Source: Bispira polyomma (lineage: Eukaryota). Taken from it: a DNA stretch of 64,000 bases. The position numbers and the translations under genes are program-made. Position 1 is the stretch's first letter. Every line of letters begins with the position of its first letter. The stretch is from assembly GCA_965649765.1 (NCBI GenBank), contig OZ287749.1, positions 7,564,001 through 7,628,000 on the forward strand, written 5' to 3'. The notes beneath the pieces are model-generated. The model searched no databases and was not told the origin of the DNA. It was given only the letters and a program-made list of their open reading frames with translations. Shown piece by piece: positions 210 to 51,200 of this stretch.

Positions 210-3200
210 GTGAGATGGGTAGATGACACAGTTTTATTTAGATCTTAGTATTGGAGTATAGTAAGACCAGGGGGAGCTATGTCAAATTTAAAGTTATTTT
301 ACCACGGTTTCTTGGGTGTAAAGCAAAGCCTGATATTTTTACTAATCCTCACAAACATGGCAATTTTACCACCATTTCTATTACATCACCACCAAGGCAA
401 GTTTAATACTCGTGACTCCCAACAGGCGGCATTTGACCTATTATCCCCTCTGTTTTGGCGGTATGTGACCTACTGTACCTTTCTTTACTTAGTATCTGAC
501 CTATTTTTCCTCCTATTTAGACAGTATTTGACCTGGTTTACCTTTCTTCGGGTAGTATTTGACCTATTTTCCGTCTTCATTTACGCAGTTTTTGACCTGG
601 TTTACCTTTCTTAAGGTGGTATTTGACCTGGTTTATCTTTCGTTAGACTGCATTTGACCTATTTCTTGTCTATGTAGGCGTTATTTGACCTACTTTTCTT
701 TTTTGCTAGGCGGTGTTTGACCACATGGATGTGCGACTACTGCGTGAGTTTGAGAAGGCCGCCCAGGACTTGTTACAGGTGCTTGACGCTGAAGACAAAG
801 TGGACTTAGAACAGAGTATGAACACCCTTTCAGAAAGGTGGCAGGTAAGAAAGGAAAGACTCTCTCGGATTCTGCAGAATTCTAACACTCAGGCTCAGAT
901 CAAAGGTGTCCAGATGGAGGGAAGTAACGACAAGTATGATTGCATAGTTGGATGCTGCGTAGAAAGCTCTTCTAACATCCATAGCTTATTTCTATCTTCA
1001 TGAGTTGCTCATAGCTCTCATTTGAAATGAGTTTAAATTGTGCCCTGAAATATATCTGTAGTAAAACTCACTGTCTCGGACAGGTTGCAGGTGAAAAAAG
1101 AATGGATCTCTAAAATCTGTAATAAAACTCACTGCAGGCTGCACTTATCCAAGAATTTAACACCAATTTTGAGAATCGTTGTTGAGATATTTGATATATT
1201 TTAGTGTACATCTTTCCAATGTATAAACTGTAGCACCTATGTTGTCTTCACCTCTGTAAACATTATATGATTAAGTATAGCACAGGTCAGCTTATACAAG
1301 GATATCTGTGCGTTTCAGGAGCTACAGCACCATGCACCTCTGCGCCTCCTACGCCTAGAGTTCCAGGTGCCAGAGGAAGTATTTCTGGGACACCTGGGCG
1401 TTGCCGAGGGAACGTTAGCTGAGGAAAAACAAGGACTAGAGGAGAAAGCGAGCATTAAAGACTTGCTGAGGAAACACAAGGTAGAAATGTTGTGAAAGGG
1501 AATTTGAATTTATTTGGGTTTTACGTCACTTTCAACAGCTTAGGTCATATTATGAAAGGGCCATATCTAATGGTGGAAGAAAACAGTGCAGAACCACTGT
1601 AAACCACCGGCCTACGACAAGTACATGACAAACTTTTCCGGACGAAGGAATAAATGGGATGCGAACCCACATTGGTGAGAGGCCAGTGATTGTGAAGCAG
1701 GCGGTTCTAAACATTATGCCACCGTGGCCCCCTGTTTTGACAGAGAATTACAAGGTGTATTCGTCTTACAGGGAAGGACTTTATGGACTGAATTAGGAAA
1801 CATAAGGTTCAACTGCGACTTTTTGCAATGTTGTTAGATTTTCTGGTTGGAGGATAAATAATAAGGACTTCTAATGTGAGAAGGTCAGCACAGGGTTGAC
1901 AGTTCTGCATATGGCATCAACAAAGGTGCCTTGACTAACACTAAGTAGAGGGTTGTATGGGATTTTCTGGTTGGTTGTATAGTCGAACTTTGAAAATTCT
2001 GATAACTTTGCACTGTCAGGAAAACACCAAATGGCCAAACATAAGGGAGCTTGACCCGATGACCATACATCAAAAAGGTTGTCACCAGAAATGAATACGG
2101 CCAGGAATGATGTAGGATCACTATGTCAGTGAACATGTGTGTAAAATCTTTGATGTTTAGTAATGACAGTATATTTTCCTTTTCTACTATGTGATACATG
2201 TCTTTATGGCCTATTTTAGACTAACGTGTCAGATTCCTTATTCATTCCCCCCATTCTAATCCCTGTGCTTCAGGCGGTGTTTGAGGAGAGTGAGCTGGTT
2301 CCTGCCTGTGAGGGGGCCCTCTCACAGATGCAAGGACACAGCGACCGTCTGTTACAGTTAGAGCGTGAGGACACGTCTCTACAGGAAGCAGTGGAGGAGT
2401 ACACGCGCCGCTGGCAAGAAGTCCTCTCCTTGATACGGGACTTGTCACAGCGACTGGAACAGGTGCCTGAAAGGTGGAGGCAGTACAACACAAAGTAAGT
2501 GGAAATCAGGGTGTGGCGGAGAGTAAGTGATAATAGGGTGGAATACGAACTGAGTGAAAATAGGGGTAAAATAGGGAGTGGGTGATAATAGGGATATAAT
2601 ACAGAGTTAATAGATTGGTTTTCGTGTGTTATTTTTGTGTCTAATAGACTGGTTTTGACATGTTGTTTCTGTGTCTAATAGACTTGTTACCCTGTGTTGT
2701 AGGCTGGAGGAGTTTGTGGAATGGATGAATGGCGTGGAGGACACAGTGTCAGAATTAGAGAAGGAGAGTCTGTCAGTACAGGAGTATAAAGATACACTGG
2801 CCAAATTCCAGGTACATTTTAACTATACTAGACATGCATTCTGTGTACACTGGCCATTCTGTAATCATTATCAACAACTACAGGAACAGCCATCAGAGTG
2901 CCTACCTCCGCCAAGATGTCACAGTGACAGAAAGTAAACAAAAAAAAATTTTGATAAAATTCCTACATTTTCACTTCTAACTGGATCTGCTCCATTGGCA
3001 TCCCTGGTGATAAACAATTCGCCAAATGAATCAAGGGACATGGACGAAAATGTCACATCCTTAGCAGAGCCTTGATAGTTATATTTAAGTTCTGTGTCTG
3101 TTGACATTAAAGTTCTGCTACATCAAGATATTGAACACACGGTAGTTCTGTTGTAAACAGTCATATTTTTAGGCTTATACTAACGAAATATCAATAGTAG

Positions 3201-6200
3201 AGGCGTTCATGAATATTGAAAAAGAAAAATACAAACAAGTGTTTTGTGTGCATTTTAAACGTTCGATGGTGTGAAATTAATGTCACGAAGCCCGAACACA
3301 AGGTTAAGTATTTTATTCCTATTCTAAAATGGTGAAAGTTTAATTTTATCAAATAACAATTCTCATCTGAAAAATAATGACACTGTTCCATGTTATGGCT
3401 GTTCCATCATATGAACATACAGGACAACAGAGTTTACAAAACAAAAACCATTGAAAATACCCCCCCAAACAAAAACCATTGAAAATACCCCCCCAAAAAA
3501 ATGCCAACTATTTACTAGTAATCAAAAATTACTGAAAGATTAATTGATTGCGATTACAGTGCTTTTTGTTGCATCAAATTCTGTCCAGGAAATGGCTGAG
3601 ATATTTAAGTTTCCTTAAAAGTACCCATCATTTTATGAATATGGATGGAACAGCCCTGCTTTATTTACAGTGTTTTATACAGAATTTATACATTGCACGA
3701 AAGACGTGTTCATGGGCGTTGTTCAGCCTATGATTTTAGAATATGTGTTTGAGAATAAACGCTCAATAGTACATGTACATACACATACAAAGGTGAAGTA
3801 ATTTCTTCCATTAACCTTGATTGTAGCAAATGATAACTCCCAGGTTTGAGGTAAGTCTGCTGCTGTCACTGTTTTGACATCTATCTGTTAGTGACGTGTA
3901 CTAACACCCCAGTTTTGCTGTGAATACAAAGATGTAATCTGAATTAATATATTTATTATACACACTGAAAGGAACTGATTTCAATAGAAGCTGGTTTGTT
4001 TCCGCAATCTATTTCTAGTTGCACCATCTACATTGGTTTTTAAAATTTTAAAAGTTTTGTTATTAAAACACATGCTGAATTTGAGTGTTTGATAACTGCA
4101 CGTTTTGCTGATTAATAGATTTACACAAAGTATATGGCTGAGAGAGTTTGATGAGGCACAGATTTTTGTGAAGTATGCGAGTTAGATGTGACCGGCGTTT
4201 GGCTGGAGCAATTCAAATAGAGTCAAAAACTAGAAGTTCCAAGATGAAATGTGAAAGTGTATTTTCAATCCCTAAAATTCTCATATGAAATTTTTGCTGT
4301 AAAAGACCGACTAATTGGCTATTATCTTGTAAACAAAAAGAAAAAAAGAAAATGGTATGTTGTGATTCTAAAATTTAATCTTCTATATTGTTGTACAGCA
4401 GTACTGCTTTGAAAAACACGATGCATTTCACTTAGGTTAAAATTTGTCAGTCATGATCTAGTTATATAGTATATGTAGTTTGATCATAGGAGCAATTATA
4501 TTTATTCCAAATTTTTTTAGGAATAAAATCTCCCACTGCCTTGCAGTCTTTTACTGATACTCTTTTATATTCCACACAGAACGTGGTACAGAACATAGAA
4601 TCTCAGCGTGGCGACGCCAAGTGGTTGAAGACAACACTAAAGGAGCTACTAGAGACTGCGTCCGCCCAGGAGGCCCAGTTAGAACAACAGCGACTGGACA
4701 CCATACTGGCCCGATACAAAACACTAATGCCGGCCATTGAGATCACCACTACACGCTCATCTATGGTGGTCAGGTCATATGACTTTAAGGAAGACATGGA
4801 GAGAAAGACCGACTGGCTCAAGGTCACAGAGGACAAACTAGCTGTAAGTGTTAGAGGGGGTTCAAGTTCACTGGGGACAATATGGCTGTAAGTGTTAGAT
4901 GGGGTTCAAGGTCACTGGGGACAATCTGGGTGTAAGTATTAGATGGGATTCAAGGTCACTGAGTACAGTATGGCTGTAAGTGTTAGAGAGGGTTCAATGT
5001 CACTGGGAATAAACTGGCTGTAAGTCTAGGGGGTTCAAGGTCACTAGGGATAATCTGGCTGTAAGTGTCAGAGGGGGTTCAAGGTCACTGAGTATAAACT
5101 GGCTGTAAGTGTTTGACAGGGCTCAAGGTCACAGAATTCAAACTGGCTGTAAGTGTTTGACAGGGCTCAAGGTCACAGAATTCAAACTGGCTGTAAGTTT
5201 TTAAAAATATATGGGATCACGTTCTATGATATGTGTCATAGTTACTTCACTAGCATCCTCACTTCGGCATTGTTTTTCATGCAAAACAATGTGGGAATAA
5301 GTAGTATAGTTCTAAATATGCACTTTTCATAATGTAGTCTATTGCCCATAGAAATAAGTTAAATATGTGAGAATAGTAAAAAGCAAGTACTTTATATGTA
5401 AGAAATCATGGTAGAACATCAATCCTCTTCAGCTGTGAATTGTGCGGATGTGTTTACATTGAGACAAAGGCTGTAGGCAATATTTACAAAAGTATTTGGT
5501 CTACGCGAATGCTAATATAGTTGTAAATTTTGAAGGATTTTATATACACATCTTTTGGTTAATTGATTCTATTGGTGCACTTAAGATGATCGTGTCAATT
5601 ATTCGCATTAAAAATGCACAATATAATACACATATTTTGCATACATAAATATTGTTCATAAATAAATAATATGTAAATAATGTTTCAGGATGACCTTGCT
5701 ATGGATGACCTTGCCTCAGTCCGGGTGTTGCTAGAAGAACAAGCCCAAATCTTAGCCAAACTGGAGCAGGAGAAGCCTAACCTCCAGACTGACATTGCTC
5801 AAGGTCGCCGGATGCTTCGGGATGAGAATGCTCCGGATTTCTTGCAGGAAACTGTCGGGGATCTGGAGGAGCGCCTGGTTGAGGCAGAGAAGATGGCTCG
5901 GCTCAAAATGGCGCGATTACAGGAAGGGGCGCAAAACTGGGAGAGTTACGAGACTGGTAAATCTCAGTTACAGGACTTCCTGCGAAGAGCCGAGATAGAG
6001 GCTGGACGTAAAGCGCCCCCTGGTGGCCAAGAGACCATACAGAAGGAACTGACCGCCAAACAGGAAATGATGGTCGCGATACAAGACTTACAGCCCGAAG
6101 TGGACAAACTGAATGTGCTCGGTAAGACATTACAAGAGACCGCCAGCGAGGCAGCCCAGGATAGTCTGAAACAGGAAGTCGTCACTATACAGGAACGGAT

Positions 6201-18200: not shown

Positions 18201-21200
18201 AAGTCATTTTGGTTTTTATCAGGCTCAGCCTGATATGGTTTTCACTCTTCGCCTTTATGTATTGGTTTGAAGCAATCAACCTGACCAAACTGAGGGGTAT
18301 TTGCTTAATATTATCAGTTGCTGCCTGATATTGCCACCATTTTGAAAGTACATGTAATATGTAAGGCCTTCAAGGATTGGTGGGAACCAATTGACCTGAT
18401 CAAACTGATGATTAATGTTTCTCACACTGTACGCCTGTGCCTTTTTAAAAGACAACTCTTGTTAATGTAGAGAAATATCTATAGTCTCACAAACACCATT
18501 TACTATCTAGCCAACAGTCCAAAAATGTAAGGACAATGGAAGCTATCATTTTCTCCTAGTATAACATCGCGTAAGTTGTCGTTAAAACAAATAGTTTCTG
18601 TACTACTCCTGTTACTCATATTTACTTGCAGGAGCTTTCACACAATAAGGACGAGGGTCAGGCTAAGTTTCACAAAGCTTTAGAGTGCGGGGAGAAACTG
18701 TACCCGACTACCTCTACAGACGGACGAGAAGTGATCCGTGGTGAGCTGCGTAGTCTGCGTGACGACTGGGACACGTACATGGACGGGCTGGCTGAGGTAC
18801 AGCGCCGCCTGGAGACCACGGTGGTACTATGGGAGGCATACGAGGACGGCTGTGTGTCCTTACAGAGGTGGTTAGAGGAAGTGGAACAAAAAGTGACCAG
18901 CGAGAGCGGAGCAAAGAGTACACTGCCTGAAAAGAAAGGGGCGTTAAATACATACAAGGTGAGTACACTGCCTGAAAAGAAAGGGGTGTTAAATACATAC
19001 AAGGTGAGTACACTGCCTGAAAAGATAGGGGCATCAAATACATACAAGGAGAGTACACTGTTTAAAAAGAAAGGGGCGTTAAATACATACAAGGAGAGTA
19101 CACTGCCTGAAAAGATGTTAAAAATGCACAAAGCTAGTACTCAATTTTAAGAGTGTATGTACACAAAATGAGTACACTGCCCGAAAAAAATAGTAATATT
19201 AGTCGTAAAAATGTTTTGTGTTATAATAAAATATTAAATAGGACTAGTTATAAAAATCTATAAAGGTGAATCTTAAAAAGCTACTGTTTTGCTTTTAACT
19301 TAACTAACCCTGGTTCCCTGTGTTTTAATTTTAATTTAACTAAGCCTGGTTCCCTGTGTTTTCAGTCCCTTCAGCAGGATATTGTGAGTCAGCAGAGCAG
19401 TGTGGACTCTGTAGTAGACAAGGGTCAAGCCCTAGAGACGTCCTCAGTGGCCAGTACTCTGACCCAGCTCAACACACGTTACAGGAGCTTGGGACACGCT
19501 GTTCAGGTAGGGTACTAGTTAGGTACTAATTAGAGGTCCACTCTAGGGGCCGCAGTGGCCTATTGGTTAGAGGCATCAGCTTAACAATCATTGGCCTCTC
19601 ACCAATGTGGGTTAGAATCCGGTTTGTTTCTTCATGTGAGAAAGTTGTTCTTCATAGATTCTTCCACTTTTTAATCCACCCATTGCGATATGACCTAAGC
19701 TGTTGTAAGTGACGTAAAACCCAACTCAATATAATTAAATATATTTAATAATAATAATAGTAATGCATTTTTAACGCGCTTTATTGATGCCAGGCATCTT
19801 CTAAAGCGCAACAGCAGAATCAGTGATCCAATCGTAAAGTCGATGGGCATAGCAAGGTCGTAAGGGTAGGGGGGTTAACAGCTGGTTGATCAGCAAGCAA
19901 CCAGATTGAGTATTAACCCACCCCGTAGCATCCGGCGGCAAGGGGCGCAACTCCCTTTCACGCTTCACATGGTGAAGGGTGCCGTAGGAGAAAGTATATC
20001 TCATCAGATCTTGTTACGATGTTTTTTCACCACCCTATATCTTTACAACGTGGTTCGTATTCTCCAAAGAAACTCGGCTCAAAGTAAGATTCAACTCTGA
20101 TGAAGGCTTTGTGGAAGTTATAGTACATAGAATAAACCCTATACTTATGACCATTTATTTTATTAGAGCTTTCAATGCTGAATTCAAATATGCAAGTCAT
20201 TGTTCACTTAACCCTAGCCAGAGATATGGGGACTTTAGATTTAAGATCTTTAGAGAATACGGCCCCAGATACATGCGTATGATGAGGTGTGGTTGCCTGT
20301 GTCTTGCCTTTCTATATATATTTCTTTTTATATATATATATATATATATATATAGGTACATATCTAAGTATGTGTGTCTTCACCTGTATTTTACCACCTA
20401 ATATGTATTAGGACCAGATATACAACTATGAGCAGGGTCCTTATTCTCGAAAGAAACTCGAGCTCAAAAGGAAGACCATGTGGAAGTTGTGTCAATAGAA
20501 ATTCCTTACATACGTGGACTTTAAATTTGAGCTTGAATCTGAGTTGAGCTTGAGATCTTTCGTGAATACGTCCACAGATGTCTATATCTATTGTTGTCTT
20601 CCCCTATATCTATAGGACCAGGTGCGTGAGTGTGATCAGGTGGTCGTACAGCACCAGGCATATGTAGACGCTCTGGCTCAGACCCGTGAGTGGCTAGACA
20701 CGCAGACGGACAGACTACAAGTGTGTGCAGAGCCCTCTAGTGAGAAACGCAACATACAGACTAAGTTAGACAGACTCAAGGTAAGTGTGGGCAGTATTGG
20801 ATGCTGTTTTTATATCACCAAAAAATGATAAAGAGAAAAGTATTTTTACAAGTACTTCTCTCAAAATGTAGGTTCAATTCCCATTCGTTTCTTCACGTGG
20901 GAAAGTTTGTCTGTACTTGCTGTAAGTCGGTGGCTTTCAGTGCTTCAGCTATATGGGCCAAGCTGCCGAAAGCAAAGTAAATTGCAACTAAATTCAAACT
21001 CTCAAAATGGAAGGGGCCTTGGTGCTGTAGAGATTATGTAACAATCGCCTTGAACCTCTGCAGTAATTTGTAATCTTGACCATGACATGTTTGTGGGAAA
21101 GTTGGCAGTAGATTTGCTGAAGGCTGGTAGTTTGCAATACATCTTGACCAGCTAGCTACCCTGTGTGGAGTTTGCTCTACCAGTATTGAAAGTAATATCA

Positions 21201-30200: not shown

Positions 30201-33200
30201 ACACAGTAAGTATTGTGATATTGAAAATAAAAAGACATACTAAATTGACTAGTATATTGACAACATATTTGAAGGCAATCTTTTGGGCCTAAAGTGTTAG
30301 TAGGCCTTAACTGTTACAGCAACAGTACAGTCTCAGATGCGAGTAGGTAGAGAATGAAGATAAAGCCGGAGTGAGTAGCTTAAGGTCATGCTGCTGTCTG
30401 AGTTCAAGGTCACATAACAAGAGAAAACACCATCTCAAGACCCTTGTGGTTAGGGAATCAATATAATTACCATATTCTCTGTAATAACGGCCACTGGGAC
30501 AATACCTGTTATTATGTTGGACATTTTTCTCGGTCTACTTCTCAATTTATTAGTATCCAAGTGTAGTATAGACCAGTGTTTTACACCAAGTCTTTACACT
30601 TAACCCGACATCTTTTTCCAGGTCCAGCATCAGGACATTCTCTCACACCAGCATGTACTGGACTCTCTCACTGAACGTGTTCACACGATGCAGGCCCGCA
30701 CTTCTACAGACTCACGGGTGGGGCGACAGCTACAGGAACTGGCCTCACATTACAGAGAGCTGTGTAGTATGAGTAGAGACCTACTGGATAGGTTCCAAGT
30801 ACAGGTGTGTATACAGTGTGTATGTCAGGTGTGTGTATAGGTGTATGTCAGGTGTGTATACAGGTGTAAGTCAGGAACTGAGATCCCGTTACAGAGAGCT
30901 GTGTAGTATGAGTAGAGACCTACTGGATAGGTTCCAAGTACAGGTGTGTATACAGTGTGTATGTCAGGTGTGTGTATAGGTGTATGTCAGGTGTGTATAC
31001 AGGTGTATGTCAGGAACTGAGATCACATTACAGAGCTCTGTGCAGTATGAGTAGAGACCTACTGGATAGGTTCCAAGTACAGGTGTGTATACAAGTGTGT
31101 GTAGATATATTTTTGGTGATAAGTGAAGGTTTATTCGTGTACTTGGTTTCAGAAACTATATCTCGGGTAGCAGTGTTACGCTCGGGTGCGTAGGGCACTG
31201 GGTACCCGTTGAGATTACTAACCCCTAAATCTAGGGCATAATATAAAGTGTAGGACAGGTATGTATATACCATCTGTACATTGTGTCCTATTACAAAATC
31301 TCAAACTGTTTGCAGGTGAGCGAGCATCAGTCGTATAGTGACAGTCACCAGGAGTGTGTGGACACGCTGAACACACTCCGAGAGAGGCTTACTTCCTGTA
31401 GACAGGCCGTGGCCGATAGATACGCCATACAGAACACATTGGAACACTTACAGGACCTACAGTACCAGGTGAGTCTCTACCAATCAGATTGTCTGTTACA
31501 TACAGAACACATTGGAACACTAATAAGACCTACAGTACCAGGTAGTCTCCGCCAATCAGATTGTCTGTTACATACAGTGACTTATCACATCATAAGCATG
31601 TTAAAGCCATAAATATGTCAATTATGACATTGTCTGTGATGTATCACAATAGCAGAAGTCAAAAATATGATTGTAGTTGCAAATATAAAGCCTAACCTGA
31701 GAGAATAACAGATTAATTGTTTGTCACTTTCCATCAATACCAAAAACAGTGGCCCTTTAAACATATTTGACAGTGTGTTTTCATATTGTAGTCATGGTAA
31801 CCTTGGTGTTTCCGTAGATTCAAGATGCAGAGACTAAGACCAAGTCCGTGTCCCAACTGTGTGACAAAACCCAGCAGACGACCTCTATCGGGGGGACGGA
31901 GTTGCTGAAGAGAGAGATGGCCTCGCTGCGCTCAGACTGGGAGGCTCTGTCTGCCGAGGCTGTGGATGTCAGGATGGGACTAGAGAGGGCGCTACTGCAG
32001 TGGCAGGAGTTTGAGGAGGCGCATGAGTTACTGACAGGATGGATGCAAAGGTGTGAACAGACACTGAAAGGACTGGAGCTAAAAGCCACGCTAGAGGAGA
32101 AACAGGAAGTGGCTACACGACTGAAGGTAGGAGGGGCATTGTGGGAAACGGGAAGGGGGGGAGGGATGTAACAGGAAGTGACTGCACGACTATAGGTAGG
32201 AGGGGCATTGTGGATAACGGGAGGGGGTAATTTGGGTGAATTTACAACCCATGCCAAACTGATTATGGGTGTTTTAAGTTCAAATATCAACCGCTTTGCA
32301 AGTTAATCTTCACAAAATTGCAACGTCCAATGGAAATGTTCAGTATTAAAAAATGCAAAAGAAATACAAAAGAGAAAAAAAAAAAAATACAGAAGATAAT
32401 TAAAACCATCTATATTTAGCATGATTCTTTATGTGAGGTAGGTGATGTTACAGTATATTTGTTTTGGACATTTAATGGAGCACTTATAATGTAGTTCTCA
32501 TTCTGTCAAACCGTGACCGCGTGTCAACATATCATGTATTTATGTAATCTAAGCTGCAATTGTGTTAATTTCCCTGTTCTCTAATTATTTTCCTATCAGA
32601 CGCTGAGGACAGAAGTGGAGGAGCATCAGTCAGACGTTGACAAGTTCACTGACCAGGTCCAGAGCCTAATGGTGAGCACTAGTGATGTGAGACTGCCCAC
32701 GTACGTCTCCCAGACAACCAGTCGCTATGAGAACCTTCACAGCGCAGTCAGAGACCAGATGAACAGGTGGGACAAGTACGTTACTGACCACCTGGAATAC
32801 AGAGAGAAGTACAACACCTTTACCAAGTGGCTCAAGGTCACTAAGGACAAACTGGACACGCCCACTAGTGGCCGAGGCACTGACCAGGACTCGTTACATG
32901 AGAGACGTAAACGGTTGGAGCTGGTTGTACAGGAGAAAGACGATGGCTTTCAGAAACTAAACGCCGCTGTAGAACAAGGCGATAAACTCTACCCCGACAC
33001 CGCCACAGCGGGACGGGAAAAGATTCGGCAGCAGCTACGCACAGCAAAGGAAGTGTGGGACAGTCTCCTGAGTGGTATCACTGAGCAGCAGAGGAAAGTG
33101 GAGACAGAACTCAGCCAGTGGGTGACGTACAGCGAGGGGGCGAAATCTGTGGAGACATGGCTGAGTGAGATGGAGGGTCTAGTGAAGGGAGAGCTAGAGC

Positions 33201-36200
33201 TGAAGGACACACTGGCTGAGAAACGGGGACAGCTACAGGGACAGAAGGTAAGGGGGTGGGGCAGAGAGAGGGGGCTTAGAGGGTGGGCTAATGGTTGAAA
33301 GAGATGGAGGAGGGTCTAGTGAAGGAGATCTGGAGCTGAAGGATAACGGAGACAGCTACAGGGACAGAAGGTAACGGGGTGGGGAAGAGAGGGTGGGGCA
33401 TAGAAGGGGAGGGGGGTAGTGGCTGAGTGAGATGGAGGGTCTAGTGAAGGGAGATTTGGACAGGGACAGAAGGTAAGGGAAAGGGGCAATGATAAGGGGG
33501 TTGGGGCAGGGATACAGGGGTGGGGAAAAATAGGGGTGGGGCTAAGATAGAGGGGTAGAGCAGAGATAGGGTGGGGTAAGATAGAGGGCAGAGATAGAGG
33601 GTGTCGGTATAGGAATAGGGGGTGGGGCATGTCTAGACAACAGGAATAGAAAGTAAGGGGATGGGGAATGAGCACAGATATAGGGGAGTGAGCACAGGTC
33701 ACAGTGCGGTTAGGCACAGGTAGGGGTATAAGATAAGGGTGCAAATAGAGAGATAGAAAATCAGAGGGCTGGGTAGAATATTTACAGTTAAGGGTCGGGG
33801 ATTAGGCTGCGGTTGCACTGAATGAGTGTTAGGAGTGGGATAATTGTGTCCATGTAAGGGGTCCGAGATAGAAGTATTACATTTTAGATTATTTTTAGAT
33901 TACAAATACTGTCATATACTACTTAATGAGTTGTTGTCTGTGACTATGGTAACTGTTTCCATGCTGTTGTTTCCAGGGTTACTTACATGACATCAGTTCA
34001 CATAGCCGTGCTGTGGAGTCTGTTGTAGAAAAGGCTCAGTCCTTGTTACAAACCTCCACAAGCGGGGCGGTCACACAGGTTGCCCAGGAAACCTCCTCCA
34101 GATACAACGCACTGATGGACAAAACCAGGGTAAGTCTGTTTGATTAGATATGTATGTGTGTTTGTCTCTGCTTTAATGATGGTGGCCTTTTTCACACACT
34201 CAGGAATTTGACACAAAGTGCACCATATTGCCTTGGCAACTGAAATAACTGGTGCATCTTCAAGTTTATAGAAATATTTGTTTGTTGTATGTACAAACAA
34301 TGTGTTCTTTCAAAGTCAAACAATCCTATTATGTGGTAACATGCAATGCTCTCTAGTTTGTATAATCTGGTAAGTGCATCCTTCCACTCTGACATGATGT
34401 GTATTTCCCCCCTTTATTACAGGAGTATATCGTGGAGTGTGAGAGGCGCGTGTCTGAGCATGCTCAGTACACAGAGACTCACCAGGTGGCGCTCGAGTGG
34501 CTTGCACTGATGAGCGACAGGCTCCAGATGTGTACAGATGTCGGCGGAGACAAACACGCAGTGTCTAACAGACTGGATAGGGTCAAGGTTAGTGCAGGAA
34601 CTCTGTGTGTAGGGATATTGGTGAAGTCAAGGTCACTGCATGAACTCTGTGGATGGGGGTGTTGTAATGGGAGGCAGTGTCAAGGTCACTTAATATTAAA
34701 TTTAAAAAAAAAAAAAACAAACCCTGTCCCAATAGCCTTCACTTTGTAGATGTTTTACTATACATCCTATCTGTAAAAGCTATAAGACTTAAGAAACAAT
34801 AGGGGATGGTCTCAAGTATGAATGTAGGTTCGGTTTAAAAAAGATTTCTAAAACATTAACAATTAAGGATAGGTGGACTGTTATGAAAGCATTATGAAAG
34901 CCCATGACTGAGTCGGCAATGAGTTTGTTAAAGTGAACATTGCCATTAGTTCAGATGATTGAGTTTCTCCTGTGTATGTTTTCAGGATCTTCTGAGTAGT
35001 CGCCCCGAGGGGGAGACCAAACTAAAGCAGTGTGAGTCTGTATCAGAGAGTGTTCTACCCAACACTGGCCCCAACGGCAGGGACGTCATACAACAGGAAG
35101 TGGGTAGTCTGAGGGAGGGATGGACACAGTACTGTACAGACGTGGACGCTACACAGACAAACCTGGCTGCTGTAATGAAAAGGTGTGTGGGTGAGGGTGT
35201 GTGTGTATGGGTGTATGTCTGGGTGAGGGTGTGTGACGCTAAACTGGATATAAAACTAAATCTAAAATGCAACCAGTCCCAGTGTTGTGTTCTAAAATGC
35301 CCAACTCTTTATTTCTCATATTTTGAGGTTGAATGAGTGTGTGAGTGTCTGTGAGTTTGTGTGTGTTGTGTAAGTATAAATCTAACCAACCTAAATCCTC
35401 TGTCTCTTGTACTTCACTTGTCATAGGTGGAATGAGTACGAAGCCGCTTATGAAGAGTTACTGAACTGGGTCAAGGAGACAGAAAAGAAGGTCAAGGCTG
35501 TGACCTTAGTTGCGACCTTGGATGAAAAGAAGACTCAGGTTACCAAGTTCAAGGTCAGTGTATAAAGGTTTTGGTTCTCCTTTTCTCCACCGTGTGTGCA
35601 AATTATTTGATTTCACCGGGGGTGTGACGGGTGAGCACAAATGGGCCGTATGGTTAGTTTAAACCCATCTGAGGAGTTAGTTTAGCAACATGGGCGGCTG
35701 ATGTAAACAAAAGTATGTCAAAAAATTACAATTCTAACATAATTATGAGGAAAACGTATAATTATTTACTAAAATTAAACAATAATAATTTGTACTTTGA
35801 CAAAGTGTTTTGATCTGACATGTGATAATGTAATGAATTTTATGTTCATAATGTGCATGTTTTCGAGTAGTTTTCAAATAAATTGGGCCTATTATTGATT
35901 AACGGCAAACCCGGTTACACCCTTAAATAGCACCAGTTTAATTTTTTAATTAATAGATGTGAAGCAAATATACAACTTAATATGTGTGCAGCAAATGTGT
36001 AACTAAGAGATGAGAGACGAAGTAGTTTAGATTGCAATTCTTGCTTGTACTGTTTGCTGCAATGACCTCGATTTTGATTGGACGTTTTATAATTATGTGA
36101 CTGATCATATGACCACAGGAGCAGTACAAGTCAGTGGAGGAGTTTTCTGCCGATATTGACAAGTTCTCAGACATGGAGAATGTAAGGGGGACTTTGTCTG

Positions 36201-39200
36201 CATGTGACTTGTTGTCTCTAGCTGTTTGTGCGTGTGTGTGTATAATATACTCCCCTTTAAAACCAATGGGCACTATGGTCACCTAAGGGTCTTAACCATT
36301 TGCCTGCCTACCAGCCGTAAATATAGGAAACGTTATTCATTTACGAAAAGCCTATCTGCTTTATACATACTTGTCACTGACTATACACGATGTTTTCTTT
36401 TTGAATGGAGATGCACATCATTGTCATTTATAAGCCTGTGTAGTAAATGAAAAACACATAAAGGGAATGTTTTAGCCTATGTATTTACTAGTTAGTGCTA
36501 GTGTGTGGATAATACTGTTAAATTAGCCCATAGTGAGATGGTTAGGACTTGGATATGGTGAAATTACAAGCATTTCAAGCTTTCTACACTATTTTGTACA
36601 ATAATTCTTCCTAATAATATATTTTTCGGTGAAACCGGTTCTTGCTTTTGACTTCTGATAGATCGGTTTAGCATTCAAACCAAGCGGAAAGCTATTATCC
36701 GGTTTGCCATCTTCTACACTACTCAAGAGTGATGTGTATTAAGGTCAGTTGTTCACTGAGAATGACTGACCTCTAGTGACCTCAGTTGTCCATTGATTTA
36801 AGGGTGTAGTGTATTAGCTCTTCTGTGTTCTACATTCCTCTTCAGAAGGTGTTGGTGACCTAGTTGCATGTTGCAAGCCACTGTTTGTTTAGGTTGTAAT
36901 GGCAGCAATAAAGGGAAGGCATTAGATTACTAACCTTACGTTTTCTTTATGTGCTTATTTCCCCTTCAAAAATACTTCCTTTGATGAAATTTTAAGGTGG
37001 ATTTTAGTCTAGACAAGTTAAGACAGGTCCGTGGTTTACAGTGGCTTTAGCACTGGTCTCTTCTGCCATTTGATCTGACTGTTATAATGTGACTTTAAGC
37101 TGTTATAAGCGATCTAAAACCCATTTGAATCCACACAGTTTCCTGTGAATCACCTCTGTATTTCTCATTTTAACCAACGATCATGCGAGGTAATGCAACC
37201 TTCTTGTGTTCAGTAACAATATTTAAGTCCAGCATATGATGCACAGAAACATTTGCAGACAAGTCAGAGACCGTATTCACCAAAGGACTTAGTCTTAACT
37301 TAGTCTTAACTTAGTCTTGAGGTTTAATTTTTAAGTCTAAAATATCCAAGACTGTCTATTTTCTTAGTGTTAAGAGCAAATTTCTCTTACTGAGAAATCT
37401 AAGGAGAAACATCTTAAGCTAAAGGCTTCAGTTAATTTATAGACCTTGTGTGAAAATTGTCCCAGATCTTTTAAGGGAAGATGCCAGGCTGTAATTTTAA
37501 ATGCAAAAACATTATTATATTCACAAGTAAAATATGCTTCTAAAACACAGTTCAGTGCAGCTTTAATTGCAAGGTCTTCCACTGCTTGGTGATGGGTGTA
37601 TGTTTAACTGTATAATGTTCTTTTGTATGTTATTAGGTATGAAATGTTCCTGTTTTGTGATGTCATTTTAGTTCTATACTAACTATTGGAGAAAGGATTT
37701 CACCAGTTTTTGGTTCAATGTTTAACATATTTTCTGTACCATTTGATGATATGGGACATTAGGAATAAACGAACCTTTAGGCAAATCTAGAAAAGCAAAC
37801 TATACATGTATGTGCTTGTTAAAAGGAATTGCTTCAAAGTATTTGCATAAATATTAATTTTTTTTTGGTCAAAAGATGCCACATTTTATTTCTTGGTCGA
37901 TACGTTTCCCCTATCTTTTGATAAAATGACACCCTAGATTTAGAAATAATGCTATCTTTATTCAGACTGAGTTGGCAGTGAAGTTGATGGGAATTTTTAT
38001 AGTCCCAGAATATCGTCCTCTCCTTAAACATACAGAACTTTTTACACACATATTGGTGTGGCACACCAGTTTGCAGTGCCAGTACCGATTCATCAGTACA
38101 GATTCATCAGTACTGAATCACCAGTACATCAAAGAATAATGCCTTATTTATGTAACACTACAAAATACATGCACATCACAAAATGGCTCAGTGAGACAAT
38201 TTTAATGTGCTGTCTATCGAGAATGTAATGAAAGGTACCATTTGAAATGACTATTAAGATACACTTAGTCCTTCTCAGATATAAGAAAGTTATGACTTAA
38301 AAGGTTGTGCTGTCTGTCGAGAATGTAATGAAAGGTACCATTTGAAATGACTATTAAGATACACTTAGAATGGTCCTTCTCAGATATAAGAAAGTTATGA
38401 CTTAAAAGGTGAAACAATAAGTCTCTTAACATTTTAAATATCCCAGCAAGAATTTCAACATACCTGCTGTACTGTTCTGGTGCGATATACTCACGCATGT
38501 CTGTGAATGATGCTCTAGCCAATTTTATCCGTGACCCTACTTAGAAATAGGTAGTCAACTAATGTATGATGCTATTTATATTTTAGTATGTAGTTTGTGG
38601 ATGTTGGTTGTCTTTTAGAGATAGTTTTCTCTTCATATGTTCTATACATGTATCTTATCCATTGTTTCAGGATATACTTTATCATGTCTAACATGTAGCT
38701 TATTTAGTATTTCAGGTCAGTTTGTTAGATTTAACTCTAGTAGAACTTCTATTATCCAAACATGTTGGGAGAGCATGTTTTTTATTTAGATAATAGAAGA
38801 TTTGTAAAATAAAAGACAGTTTGGGAAATTTTTTGGAGTGAATGTCAAATATTTGGATAATAGAAGTTCAGATAGTAGAGGTTCTAGTGTCTTTATATTT
38901 CAGGGTCGTATCTGACTTCTGACCTTATAGCTTCTATTTTGTATGGTGTTTTTTTTATCAAAATGGTCTTTTGTTTAAAACAGATTACAAAAAAAAAAGG
39001 ACTTTATGAAGTGTTTTTTTCTAATTAAAGTATTCTATGGCAGTTTAAAATATTCAGGAGTAGTTATCTTCTACGAAAACCTTTAATAAAATAATAAACA
39101 TTATTTCCATTGCAAGGATGTAAAGATTCTATGAGCCTTTTTGTATCGTAATTGTAATATTGAAAGTGTTTAGACCAGGTATTTGGAATAGGCCAGATGC

Positions 39201-42200
39201 AGTATATCCAATATACATTTAATCCCTGTCAATTTTGGCTAAAGAATCTAGGTGACAAATCTAAAACTCTCACTTGTAAAGAAGAGCAATATCGGCATAT
39301 TTATTCACTACATTAAAAGCTTGGTTTGAAATGCCAGGTACTATTTTCATTCTTACATAGTGGTCTTGTTTGCCTAGTGGTTAAGGTTTGTCTTGGTGAT
39401 CAGAAAGTCCCTGTTTCTAATCCTGGTTGAAAGTCTTGGTCTGGTGATCAAAAGGTCACATAATATTATATACTATTACGTAGCTTAGTGGTTAGAGAGT
39501 CGGTCTAGTGATCAGAAAGTCCCTGGTTCACCCCTTAGGAATACTTCTAGGGTAGGATAACATCCTTGGGCAAGATGTGACCTCACCATTGCGTACTAAT
39601 GATGACCCAGGTTATGTTGTAGGACTATCCCTTTTAGAAAATGAGCGCGTTAGAGGATGTTCTCATCAATTTGGCACTTTGTAAGTGTTTCAATTATTAT
39701 TATTATTAAGATAATATATCACTAGGGTGCTATATAAATGATTCAATAATAATTATAGTAAAACAAACGATAATATATGAACGTTACAGGAACTACTACA
39801 AGACATCAAGTCTCGCCAGCAACAAGTGGATCTTGTTGCCGACAGAGCTCAGACCGTGTCCCAGGTTACTGCGGAAACCAGAGTAGCAACCTATGTGACC
39901 CAAGTGACAACCAGGTACCAGTCACTGCTTACAACTGCAAAGGTAGGAATTAGCTTTTATGTGTGTAGTTAACTCTCATATAATTTTAAAAAGACCCATA
40001 TAACAGGACGAATTAGCTGGCTATGGTACCCTTTACTATGTGAAGGGTAAAAGGGAGTTGTGCTCCTTACTGCTACTGTTAACCCCCCCTACTCTTACGA
40101 CCTTGCTATGCCAATAGTCTTTACCATTGGATTACCATCAATAAAGCGCATTAAAATGCATAATAATAAAAATAATTCTCTATTTTGCTGTTTTGGTGAA
40201 AATAAAAGGAAAATGGATGTCTGTATTCTTAGGATTTGACACTAACAGTCTTGGAGCATTTCATTTGTAGCAGTTTGGTTTGTGGTAGTGTTTTAAGGTG
40301 TTTACAAACTGTATGAAGTAGTTCAGAAAAGCCTGAATGATCAGCGCCGTAAAAAATATTTTTAGCCAATCAAATTGTGAAAATGAAAGAATAAGAATCT
40401 TTGTGAATACCAGCCCTGGTGTACATATTAAATGACAGGTGCGGCAAAATATTTCTTAGTTTATAAACTTATACCATAGCAGAGTTAAAAATTATATGTG
40501 ATGCCTGAGGTAGTTTGTGGTGTGTGTTTAAGAGACTTCAGCTGTGTGTAAACCCATTGCTGAAAAATTTCCTTTAGTTCTCGAAGGTAGGTTTCTCCTA
40601 CTTGTGAAATGATTGAAACAGTTTTGAGTTTGGTCAGCTTTTCAGTGTTGTTGACATTGTGTACTTCAGGACATTGTGAAGAAGTGTGAGCAGAATGTTG
40701 TAGAGCACGAGGATTATAAGGACAAGTATCAGACGGCAGCGAGATGGGTGGAGGGGGCTCGTGAAAGATACACCTCCTCTACTACACTGGGGAATACACG
40801 CACAGATGTACAGACTAAACAACACACTATACACGTAAGTAAGGGGGTAGTGAGGTCGGTAAAGGAGGGAGAGGTATACCTCCTCTACTAGGGAATACAC
40901 GGACTGATGTACAGACTAAACAACACACTATACACGTAAGTTGGATCGATCAATATCAAAATATTTGAATTTGGTTAGCTTTAAACTCTCGCCATTTAGT
41001 AAAACCTTCATGCCACTTCTGTAAACATGGCCGCAAACAAGTATTTCAAAGTGCGACAAATTGCTTTATTGCGATAACAGGACTTCGGTCCAGTTTGATA
41101 AATATTTTGATATGTACTATACCATACCCATACCTACATATCAGTATTGTCATAACCTCAAATGTATCTATACACAATTTTACAGGCTTTAGTACTGGTT
41201 TTGAGTGTATCAGTCAAGCTCTAGAGTCTATAGCAAGTTGACTGTTCACATACTAGTAGCGTCTGTATATAAGACCTAATCCCTGTGTACATATTTCAGC
41301 CTTTAGTCCAGGAGGAGGCTGGTTTTAGGAAGTTTTATAAGTCTTATAAAACGTTTGTTGTACTTGGATCAATATTGTATTTTACCTAAGATTTATCACT
41401 GTATACATTGTGAGTTAGTTTGAGATTGTTGGCAGTATTTTTAAGTCAATATAAGCCTTTTTTTGTCTGAGATATAATACTAGTTCACTGTATTCACTTT
41501 CCAGGCTTTAGTCCATGAGAAAGAGTCAGGCTTTGAGCGTGTCAGCCAAGCTCTAGAATCCGGAGACAAACTCTACCCTAGTACTTCTACAGAGGGCAGA
41601 GAGATCATACGTAACGAGTTACGCCGGCTAAAGACAGACTGGGACGGTCTCTATGATGATGTACTGAGTGTACAGCGCCATCTAGAGGTCAGTCTGGTGC
41701 AGTGGACGTCATTTGAGGACAGTTACGAGCAGCTGGAGGGATGGCTGGAGAATATGGAGGGTCAACTGGCAGGGGAGATACCATTACACGCTACACTGGA
41801 GGAAAAGAAGGGACAGTTACAGACTTATAGGGTGAGTGTACCAGGGGTGGGGTTAGAGGGGGGTGGTGTAGGGAGAGGGATGGCTGAGGAATATGGAGGG
41901 TCAAATGGCTGAGGAGTTGCCGGTACATGCTACATTGGAGGAGAACATGGGACAGTCTCAGATGGGTTGATGTGGCTGTACAAGGGGTAGAGGGTGGGGG
42001 TCAGGGTTTTGGTGAGGAGTGACGTTGGGGTAGGGGACTGTCGATCGAGGAGAAATGCATTGGGGGTGAGGTATTACTGGGAGATTGTGGGGGTTGGGGA
42101 AATGTACAGGGTGGGTTGGGGTCAAAGCATGGTTATTGTGATGGGAATTCCAGTCCAGTTAATGTCCAAATCTGTAGTCCTCTCAGTGTGTAAGTAGTAA

Positions 42201-48200: not shown

Positions 48201-51200
48201 ATTGTACAATTTTCAAGCAGAGTAGGCCTAATTATATTAATCTGTGTACAATGTTTAGGCAATCCCAGCCTATTGTATTAATATGTGTACACTTTTTCAG
48301 GCAATCCACGATGATCTGAACACTCGTCAGGCAGAACTAGACGAGTTAACAGACAAGTGTCAGGCACTAGCTCGGACCTCAGGGGACACCAGACTGACCT
48401 CTCAGGCTAGTCAACTCAGTACCAAGTACCAGTCACTGGAACTCAGTGTCAAGGTTAGTAACAAAGGTCACAGGGGTTAATTGATAAACACTCAGTGTCA
48501 AGGTCAGTCAACCCAGTACCAGGTACCAGTCACTGACACTCAGTGTCATGCTCAGTCACCAAGGTCACTGACGTTAAATTGTAAACACTCGGTGTCAAGG
48601 TCAGTTACCAAACTCACAGGGGTTAAATAGTAAACATAAGTTCTAGGTCATTATCAGATGCGTGGTTGTACGGATTCTGTAATTGCAAATGTATGATATT
48701 TTCGGTGACCATAGTGTGAAGTATTGTTTTTGTAAGAACAGAACATGTTTATTTGCTGTTAGGGCACAAGCCTCTTGCACATACATATACATAAAAATAA
48801 CTAACAAAAAGAACATACTCAATATTTGATTAGCACATCATATATGTCATTTTAATAACAAAAATAAGTGCTTCAAAGAACATCAATTGTAATCATTAAG
48901 TAGTAAACTGTCAGTTAAATTTAAATTACACTTTAACCTCTATTATTCAAAATTCTATTACCTGAATATTGAATTCTTAGAACTTGTTTTCAGTCTGTTA
49001 AATTTAGTTATTTCTGTTGTTATACAGGAGCTGGTGCGTAGGTGGGAGCAGTATGTGTTGGATCATGAGAAGTATGAGGACGCTTACCACAACTGTTCTG
49101 AGTGGCAGAAAGATCAGGCCAGTAAACTGAGATCTTGTACCTCAACAGAGGGGGATAGGGTCACACTGAACAACAGGCTGAGTAAACTACAGGTATTAAG
49201 ATTTTAAGATTTTGATTATCATTTAACTTAGCCCCTTACAATTTGATCTGATAAAAAAATAAACACTAAAAAAAAGTGTGATAATGAAATTTGTTTCTTT
49301 TCACACTTTTTTTCTCGATTTTCCAGGAAGTTCTCCAAAACAAAGAAGAGGGTTAGTCCTCCCTTTAGCAAGCTATGCACGCGACCCACTTAGTACAGAC
49401 AGTAATTCTCTCACTGCTTTCCAACTTTCCAGGAAGGTCTCTAGAACAAAGAAGAAAGGTTACTCCTCCCAGCAGCTAAGCACTTGGTGGTGTAATGGTT
49501 AACAAACTTGCCTCACACCTCTGGGGTGGTGGGTTTCGAATCTTGGCTGCGACTTTATGTGGGAAAGTTGGCTGTAACTTACCCAGTGGTTTATAGTGCA
49601 GAATATTGACCAACTAATATACACTGCCCCCACCAATGAAATTACCCGTCAGTGATATGACCTATACAATGTGTTGAAAGTGACGTTAAAACCCATAACC
49701 AGATCAAATTACAGTCAGTAATTACTCGTTTTCTAACTTTCCAGGAAGTCCTCCAGAACAAAGAGCAGGGTTACTCCTCCCTCCAGCAAGCTGTGGACGC
49801 GGCCCACTTAGTACAGCCCAGCACGTCTGCCCCGGGTAAGGACCACATCGCGGAGGATCTGCAGGGCTTACGTCAGGACTGGGAGGACATGATTTCACTG
49901 ATGAGCGGTGGAAAGTCCCGCCTAGAAACGGCCCTCACCCACTGGGATCACCATGATGACACAGTGACGGCACTTAACAAGTGGCTCACGGACATGGAGG
50001 ACAACCTAAAGCAGGAGAGTGCACTCCAGGCCACCTTGTCTGAGAAAAGGTCACAGCTAGAGAGGGTCAAGGTCAGTACTCAATCTGCAAGCTGCACTTT
50101 ATAAATTATCTGTCTTTTTGTGATTGCACCGATTTCATTTTTATTGTGGCACCAATTTTAAGCGAGAACACATTTATTGTGTATATCTAAAAATATTAAT
50201 ACCGGAGTATGTTTAAGGGGGTTGCCGACATCATAGGACACTGTATATTTTGGGTACTGTCGGAAAGGCTTAGTGCTCTGAAAAAATGATTAATCTGTCT
50301 TTATTTTCATTAAGTCTGACTTCATACTTACAAAGTTAGGCACTTTTGTGACGAAAAAAATTGCCATCTTAAACTTTTTCTGCTGTGATCTGTCACAGCA
50401 ATATAATAGTAAAGATATACATTTTATATCCCGTGCTGTATTGCATATCAAAACATCCTATTTCATGGCCGGGTGGATAAGAAAACAATTTACTTGTTGA
50501 TGGCCTCCCCTTCCTTTAAATTGTGGGCAACAGCTTGTATGTATTCAATGTTTTCTAGAGTTAGATATTTCTAACAGTAACTGGAATCTAAGTGTTTTGC
50601 TATCATTGTTTTCTGACTAATATTTTATGATACACTTCTGTAATAATGCACTGTTATAAAGACTCTAATAAAAGTACTTTATTCTCTTTATTTCAAGCAC
50701 CACTAATAAATATTGTAGTAACCGTTTTCTTGCGTCACACACTTTTCTGGTAGAGTAGAATTTGTATTTCTTTTTTGAACGAAAAGTCAATAAGACTATA
50801 AACCTGTAGGATTTGAACCTGTATAAACATGTATGAACCAGATGTAATTCATAGAATTACGTCAGTGAAAAAGTGTTGTATTGTGGAAATAACTTGTTGT
50901 ATCTGTTGCATTCATTGTGTCATCTCTATATTAATTATAATAACTGATTAATATTAAGTTCTAACTTTAGAAAATAATCAATGTGTTTAGGGTGCAAAGC
51001 GTAGCGTTTCCCTACAGGAGTCAACTGTACAGGAAGTCACGGACACGGCAAGTCTCACTTCACCCCTTCATTATAGCTTTGCCTCCTGTTTATACAGCCT
51101 AATCCCTGCTTATATCAATACATTGTTAACACACACACACATGAAATGACTGTTGGTCAAATTTTATGAAAATCTGAAGATTATACATTTAAATTGATGT

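Follow-up and report, generated by a model that had tools for sequence, protein, structure and literature searches.

We describe here a 63-nucleotide (nt) exon, termed exon B, in a giant nesprin-1/Msp300 gene of Bispira polyomma. The exon lies within a stretch of 64,000 nt (C2:7564001-7628000 of a 1,035-Mb animal genome), which we call the window and whose own numbering is used below unless a contig is named. Exon B stands between the exons for helix A and helix B of a single spectrin repeat, and the peptide that it encodes imitates the start of a helix B in exact register. From its sequence, and from the exons and inserts found at the same junction in other animals, we infer that exon B is probably a conserved, in-frame cassette exon, one that would be joined into the long protein by the splices 35553>36119 and 36181>39790. 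The narrower claim, that exon B is a real exon, we consider very probable.

Exon B and its likeness to helix B

Exon B occupies positions 36119..36181 of the + strand, is of phase 0-0, and encodes the peptide EQYKSVEEFSADIDKFSDMEN. Its host intron (35554..39789, + strand) measures 4,236 nt, which makes it the longest among the window introns measured, and it falls between helix A and helix B of one spectrin repeat, near residues 3,840-3,940 in the orthologous proteins. The constitutive exon upstream (35427..35553, + strand) covers positions 1-44 of the Pfam Spectrin profile and ends helix A with …KKTQVTKFK and a phase-0 donor; the constitutive exon downstream (39790..39942, + strand) provides the native helix B and the start of helix C (ELLQDIKSRQQQ…). 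Exon B begins with GAG after the intron sequence ccacag and ends with AAT before gtaagg, so that it has AG and GT at its borders, preserves the frame, and remains open throughout.

Splice sites were scored with matrices trained on 40 acceptors and 41 donors of this gene. By this measure the acceptor of exon B is middling (score 7.3, with 15 of the 40 constitutive acceptors lower) and its donor is weak (5.4, with 4 of the 41 constitutive donors lower). In 46.8 kb of + strand intron there are two phase-0 exon candidates with scores like these, exon B among them, and on the - strand there are none; the other + strand candidate is a piece of a real exon that had been left unmasked.

The preliminary description of this DNA had proposed an alternative 63-nt exon that mimics the start of helix B, and the mimicry is borne out by a comparison in exact helix-B register. 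The closest match in the window is the helix-B start of the paralogous exon at 32600..33247 (+ strand), with which exon B shares 8 of 21 residues (BLOSUM score 39); as the best match among 12 helix-B starts, this likeness was reached by none of 20000 shuffles. Against all 15 helix-B starts of the window, the helix-B likeness of exon B has P=0.0014. The best fit of all is to the lophotrochozoan helix-B starts that lie downstream of this very junction (P=0.0002; for example, 8/21 residues in Lottia, with DIDKF at the same positions), and it makes duplication of a helix-B exon start the likely origin of exon B. Among the 13 introns of the window that fall between a helix A and a helix B, only the intron of exon B holds a helix-B-like peptide.

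The gene itself is identified by its domains and by collinearity. The + strand of the window holds a long series of SYNE1-type spectrin-repeat exons, with rod profile matches to PF25034 and PF00435. A CH domain (PF00307) is found at C2:7536356 (+), 27.6 kb upstream of the window, and a KASH domain (PF10541) at C2:7752177 (+), 124 kb beyond it, which by position and strand probably belongs to the same gene. Msp300-like proteins of Lineus and Littorina align collinearly with the exons of the window, and the collinear chain runs from the CH domain through the window; over 750 residues, the orthologues of four gastropods and of Lineus show 42-46% identity, those of arthropods 28-31%, as would suit a lophotrochozoan at some distance from every named protein. 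By these sequence matches, the gene is a giant nesprin-1/Msp300 with CH upstream and, probably, KASH downstream. Two further KASH-domain matches occur in the same genome, at C10:9790263 and C2:44503759.

Public DNA contigs are identical to the window over 35300-36359 and over 36636-37312, and thus the sequence discussed here is not an assembly error. The same contigs, which derive from three runs whose library type is unrecorded, contain no splice joints at the exons and show joints only within repeats, and so have no bearing on expression. Judged by contig depth, high-copy repeats occupy 36520-36700, 37100-37340, 38600-38900 and 39400-39700 of the host intron; exon B and the segment 36720-36934 lie outside them.

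The same junction in other animals

We scanned metagenomes for the orthologous junction, using as query a two-sequence alignment of the upstream exon, and recovered nine loci (L004-L012). A scan with the frame of exon B gave 593 pattern matches, none of which was confirmed, and the helix-A exon used alone as query yielded nothing among 6 candidates. L004 is the only scanned locus in which a spliced gene spans the orthologous intron; in L012, no more than 385 nt precede the downstream exon. High helix-B scores were also encountered in L009-L012, and were read as ordinary constitutive exons of those loci.

L004 is a contig from a distant animal, and its run of exons flanking the intron is 33-60% identical to that of the window. 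The same intron, at 1915-3026 of L004, contains a phase-0 exon of exactly 63 nt at 2220-2282, which encodes EIMTDMEKHETPFEELCIQED and which ends in AT followed by GTAAGG, as exon B does. Its acceptor scores 8.6, its donor 2.2, and its peptide is helix-B-like at P=0.0003. In 3,000 Markov-shuffled versions of the L004 intron, a phase-0 exon of any kind appeared in 148 and one of 63 nt in 4, while none contained a helix-B score as high as that of the L004 exon, and none combined the length with the score. What exon B and the L004 exon have in common is length, phase, position and register, not sequence, and the comparison is with one species only. An alignment of the whole intron between window and L004 found DNA matches at chance level only; an 11-mer, GACATGGAGAA, occurs in both 63-nt exons, at different positions, and was taken as chance.

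In L004 the counterpart of the helix-B exon at 39790 is split into exons of 57 nt (3027-3083) and 96 nt (3260-3355). The 63-nt exon of L004 could be mutually exclusive with the 57-nt exon.

A second line of comparison comes from annotated proteins. We examined 76 proteins at the junction, of which two (P0001, P0239) were dropped as matching another repeat, leaving 5 lophotrochozoan models, all of them free of an insert, and 69 proteins from arthropods. Among the arthropod orthologues, 35 of the 69 carry a helix-B-like insert of 24 or 25 amino acids at this point and 34 carry none, with no insert of any other size; the carriers include insects, Strigamia, Limulus and Larinioides. The junction is visible in 101 of 168 further cluster members, where the 25-residue insert is present in 49 and absent from 43, the rest being 8 unnamed open reading frames (ORFs) that stop just past the junction and 1 sequence matched on one side only. 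In an alignment of 3,000 residues from 13 orthologues, the insert is one of just two indels of at least 12 residues.

Both forms, with and without the insert, are annotated in 18 species from four insect orders, mostly Hymenoptera, and in Neocloeon the insert is the sole difference between isoforms X1 and X2. This arthropod Msp300/nesprin-1 cassette of 25 amino acids (Tribolium X15 versus X18, Neocloeon X1 versus X2, Colletes X10 versus X11) resembles exon B in that it occupies the identical helix A/B junction, is in frame, and is helix-B-like in register. It differs in having 25 residues rather than 21, in showing no specific homology to exon B past their common likeness to helix B, and in that its forms are known as database annotations. 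Together with the positional orthologue in L004, it gives good support to the earlier proposal that exon B is an alternative exon mimicking a helix-B start. Several arthropod ORFs (P0309, P0415-P0420, P0012, P0017) stay open for 2,600+ residues and come to a stop precisely at the junction; this one intron is seemingly retained, and the neighbouring introns are absent.

One of the scanned loci, L007, has no intron at the junction and reads through a 25-amino-acid insert in frame; the fold of its insert-bearing repeat was modelled. According to the AlphaFold predicted local distance difference test (pLDDT), the insert is helical with values of 90-95, the helix continues to residue 92, and the values for native residues 91-110 drop to 61-64. 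The insert-free control, in contrast, has an unbroken helix B at 42-80, with blocks of at least 90 across helix B and the B-C turn. From the high values in the insert and the low values in the native residues that follow, we infer a displacement of the native helix end at the B-C turn. A Foldseek search with the insert-bearing model still returns a spectrin repeat.

Several observations weigh against the reading of exon B as a conserved cassette exon. Exon B and the L004 exon have only 3/21 residues and 27/63 nt in common (P=0.03), and the donors of both, at 5.4 and 2.2, are weak. With respect to arthropods, the inserts differ in length (21 versus 25 residues), and exon B scores 6.7 against the arthropod inserts, below three ordinary helix-B exons of the window (11.1, 9.2 and 6.8). 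Since ordinary helix-B starts resemble the arthropod inserts at least as closely as exon B does, exon B and the inserts may have a single origin or may descend from two independent duplications. Drosophila and tephritid proteins are without the insert, and the genomic ORFs continue across the site; the insert is likewise found in 0/9 Lineus RefSeq isoforms and in 0/4 gastropod models. The fold described above was modelled with an arthropod-type insert of 25 amino acids, not with exon B, and was judged by summary output, namely pLDDT and secondary structure. Finally, decayed local copies of exon ends exist elsewhere in the gene, at 49327 and 49433.

These last copies bring up a different view of exon B, namely that it is a decayed local duplicate, or a chance pseudo-exon, and is never spliced. 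The sequences at 49327 and 49433 repeat, in tandem and in decayed form, the beginning of the exon at 49745 (EVLQNKEEG-stop), and stand behind strong acceptors (15.2 and 12.0, respectively); local duplications of exon junctions thus do occur in this gene. At 18959-19150, moreover, tandem copies of the end of the preceding exon (STLPEKKGALNTYK-like units) extend into the intron and create another in-frame donor near 19003. The weak donor of exon B and its low identity to the L004 exon would also suit a sequence that is never spliced. Such a sequence would not be expected to agree with an L004 exon in length, phase, position, donor and register, nor to fall where the arthropod rod alignment has one of its two long indels. 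The likeness of exon B to the exon at 32600, furthermore, weakens toward the donor and is absent from the flanking intron, and the DNA of exon B is single-copy. We therefore regard a decayed or accidental sequence as improbable, and retain the conserved cassette exon as the preferred reading.

A possible early end and Rbfox-type motifs in the host intron

Exon B was also proposed to lead into a compact alternative 3' end, and the individual signals of such an end are indeed in place. A strong orphan acceptor (AG at 36844-36845) precedes a candidate terminal exon whose coding part, KVLVT-stop, spans 36846..36863 (+ strand), and an AATAAA motif, the candidate poly(A) signal, follows at 36907..36912 (+ strand). 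The acceptor scores 11.2, above 31 of the 40 constitutive acceptors, and ranks 2nd of the 260 AG dinucleotides in the intron; a second acceptor at 36849, scoring 1.2, was set aside. The U-rich downstream element that completed the proposal is present as a stretch from about 36938, but it is supplied by the edge of a dispersed repeat (36935..37023) that has 9 other genomic matches at 74-80% identity.

If these signals are used, exon B would serve mainly as the penultimate exon of a short isoform, spliced 36181>36846 and cleaved near 36930, a use that can coexist with its use as a cassette. The product, about 3,900 amino acids long, would be a nesprin with CH and without KASH, terminating in helices A and B of an open repeat. 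Besides the rank of the acceptor, this view draws on the spacing of the signals, because an acceptor of such strength with AATAAA inside 100 nt arises in 3% of 300 shuffled introns, which is a modest result. It draws also on L004, where the same order is repeated: the 63-nt exon is followed 153 nt later by the strongest orphan acceptor (9.6, also ending CTCTTCAG), and then by the sole AATAAA of the intron, an arrangement seen in 1.5% of 1,000 shuffles. In addition, the acceptor of the downstream constitutive exon is pyrimidine-poor, the 20 nt before 39790 (39770-39789) having a pyrimidine content of 0.41, the lowest among the 40 acceptors; a Tegillarca gene model terminates at the junction with nine unrelated residues, ILARTDLIF; and human nesprins are reported to have many intronic 3' ends that bear short unique tails (PMC3388047).

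The comparison with other animals is less kind to an early end. The terminal peptide is not conserved, since the L004 acceptor yields LSFIYFSIKKKLILHRWW-stop, and there the AATAAA lies inside an A-run that precedes the in-frame stop. No isoform ending after the insert was found among the annotated arthropod isoforms examined, although cluster look-ups may miss short isoforms, and the 8 sequences that do stop past the junction are unnamed Logan/ENA ORFs that start with V right after it and are read as run-on into the intron. The KASH-less gastropod and Lineus models end about 2,900-3,100 amino acids farther downstream. The thresholds of the shuffle tests, for their part, were chosen after the data had been seen. 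The layout of acceptor, stop and AATAAA stands as proposed and has a similar counterpart in L004, the terminal peptide has none, and the comparative evidence favours exon B splicing onward to 39790 over the KVLVT-stop end. We regard use of the KVLVT-stop end, and with it the short isoform, as rather unlikely. An LLVT-stop in L004 that looks like the end described here was rejected, being out of frame and behind a poor acceptor (1.4), with P=0.11.

The gastropod models (P0168-P0172) share a KASH-less C-terminal tail, and the tail of Lineus is similar. A search of the present genome with the Lineus tail returned nothing, and tblastn gave a weak collinear match (21%) at window-relative positions of about 90.8-92.3 kb.

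The host intron also contains three copies of TGCATG, the Rbfox-type motif, all on the + strand. One lies at 36199..36204, which is 17 nt past the donor of exon B, just where the preliminary description had put it; one lies upstream of exon B, at 35854..35859; and one lies directly after the KVLVT stop, at 36865..36870. In mammals, a TGCATG downstream of an alternative exon is in the activating position, according to PMC4317164. At least three copies per intron were found in 42 of 300 shuffled introns, so that three copies are not an unusual number for the host intron. L004 has no motif at the equivalent place; a GCATG lies 113 nt and a TGCATG 386 nt downstream of its exon. Rbfox control of exon B is possible.

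Yet another use is conceivable for the acceptor at 36846, which might serve a 3-nt microexon, 36846-36848 (AAG, Lys), instead of a terminal exon. The donor formed by AAG and the following GTGTTG scores 4.5, near the 5.4 of exon B, and the TGCATG begins 16 nt downstream of it, mirroring the arrangement at exon B; TGCATG is reported to be enriched downstream of alternatively spliced human microexons (PMC4317164). On the other hand, only 2 of the 41 constitutive donors score lower than this one, and the equivalent acceptor of L004 has no GT. A microexon here would be a long shot. Less probable still is that exon B serves as an alternative first exon, with an in-frame ATG (…GACATGG, Met-Glu-Asn), in good context near the donor, as the start of an N-terminally truncated isoform. 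Internal promoters are used by nesprins (PMC3388047, PMC8616381), but in both species the ATG is preceded by a good 3' splice site and by coding-like, helix-B-like sequence, and the ATGs of the L004 exon are at different places.

Proposed role and comparison with known systems

Returning to the conserved cassette exon, we propose the following. Exon B was probably born by duplication of the start of a helix-B exon, and its inclusion would lengthen one repeat of the long protein by 21 residues. The spare helix, when included, would occupy the slot of helix B and displace the last part of the native helix, which would then protrude more loosely at the B-C turn. The outcome would be a changed stiffness, local slack or a new binding surface in one repeat, and likewise for the 25-residue cassette of arthropods. 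By simple arithmetic, 21 residues make three heptads and 25 make seven turns of 3.6, and both lengths would preserve the hydrophobic face of the helix.

Extending this proposal, we tentatively suggest that one mid-rod repeat of protostome nesprin-1/Msp300 has had a splice-controlled spare helix B since before the split of arthropods and lophotrochozoans. Inclusion would permit two fold registers, with slack or a binding loop, so that one site along a rod of 7,000 residues might act as a mechanical switch set differently in different tissues. The lophotrochozoan exon may have a second use, closing a short isoform whose last repeat is an open half made of helices A and B. This broader picture is, in our estimation, rather less probable than not.

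As a class, such features are ordinary, since nesprins are well known to have alternative exons and to end early. It is less ordinary that, among many helix A/B junctions, a single one should be occupied in insects by a duplicated helix that is optional, with comparable inserts in a centipede, a horseshoe crab and a spider. The present evidence adds an exon at the junction in this genome and in L004, and Drosophila, where Msp300 is studied, has none. These occurrences suggest that the mechanical scaffold has a conserved site of tuning, open to test, at which one repeat is made with or without 21-25 residues. A likely real exon would, moreover, be missing from the current gastropod and nemertean gene models, while the insect form is present in RefSeq models. 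An optional exon at this nesprin junction was not found described in the open-access literature searched, leaving aside supplements, which possibly list insect cassette exons.

Among known systems, the optional SH3i insert of alphaII-spectrin, of 20 amino acids, is like exon B a short spliced insert in a spectrin-repeat protein (PMC3751641). According to the same source, it raised Mena/VASP binding and marks the isoform of the Z-disc and intercalated disc. It belongs to a different gene and adjoins an SH3 domain, and is thus an analogy only for the possible effects of an insert.

The Drosophila Msp300 isoform B, which has CH and lacks KASH, is a product of the kind expected from the KVLVT-stop end, and CH-containing Msp300 isoforms are reported to act at Z-discs (PMC8616381, PMC11230431). 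The difference is in where such products end: in arthropods, gastropods and Lineus, the models without KASH continue for about 2,900-4,000 amino acids past the junction, and no isoform of this kind ending at the junction itself was seen except one Tegillarca model.

The human nesprins also have short in-frame optional exons, such as exon 93 of nesprin-1 (47 amino acids) and exon 107' of nesprin-2 (23 amino acids), and early intronic 3' ends with unique tails (PMC3388047). In that account the human cassettes are described as unique peptides, whereas exon B appears to be a duplicate of the repeat's own helix.

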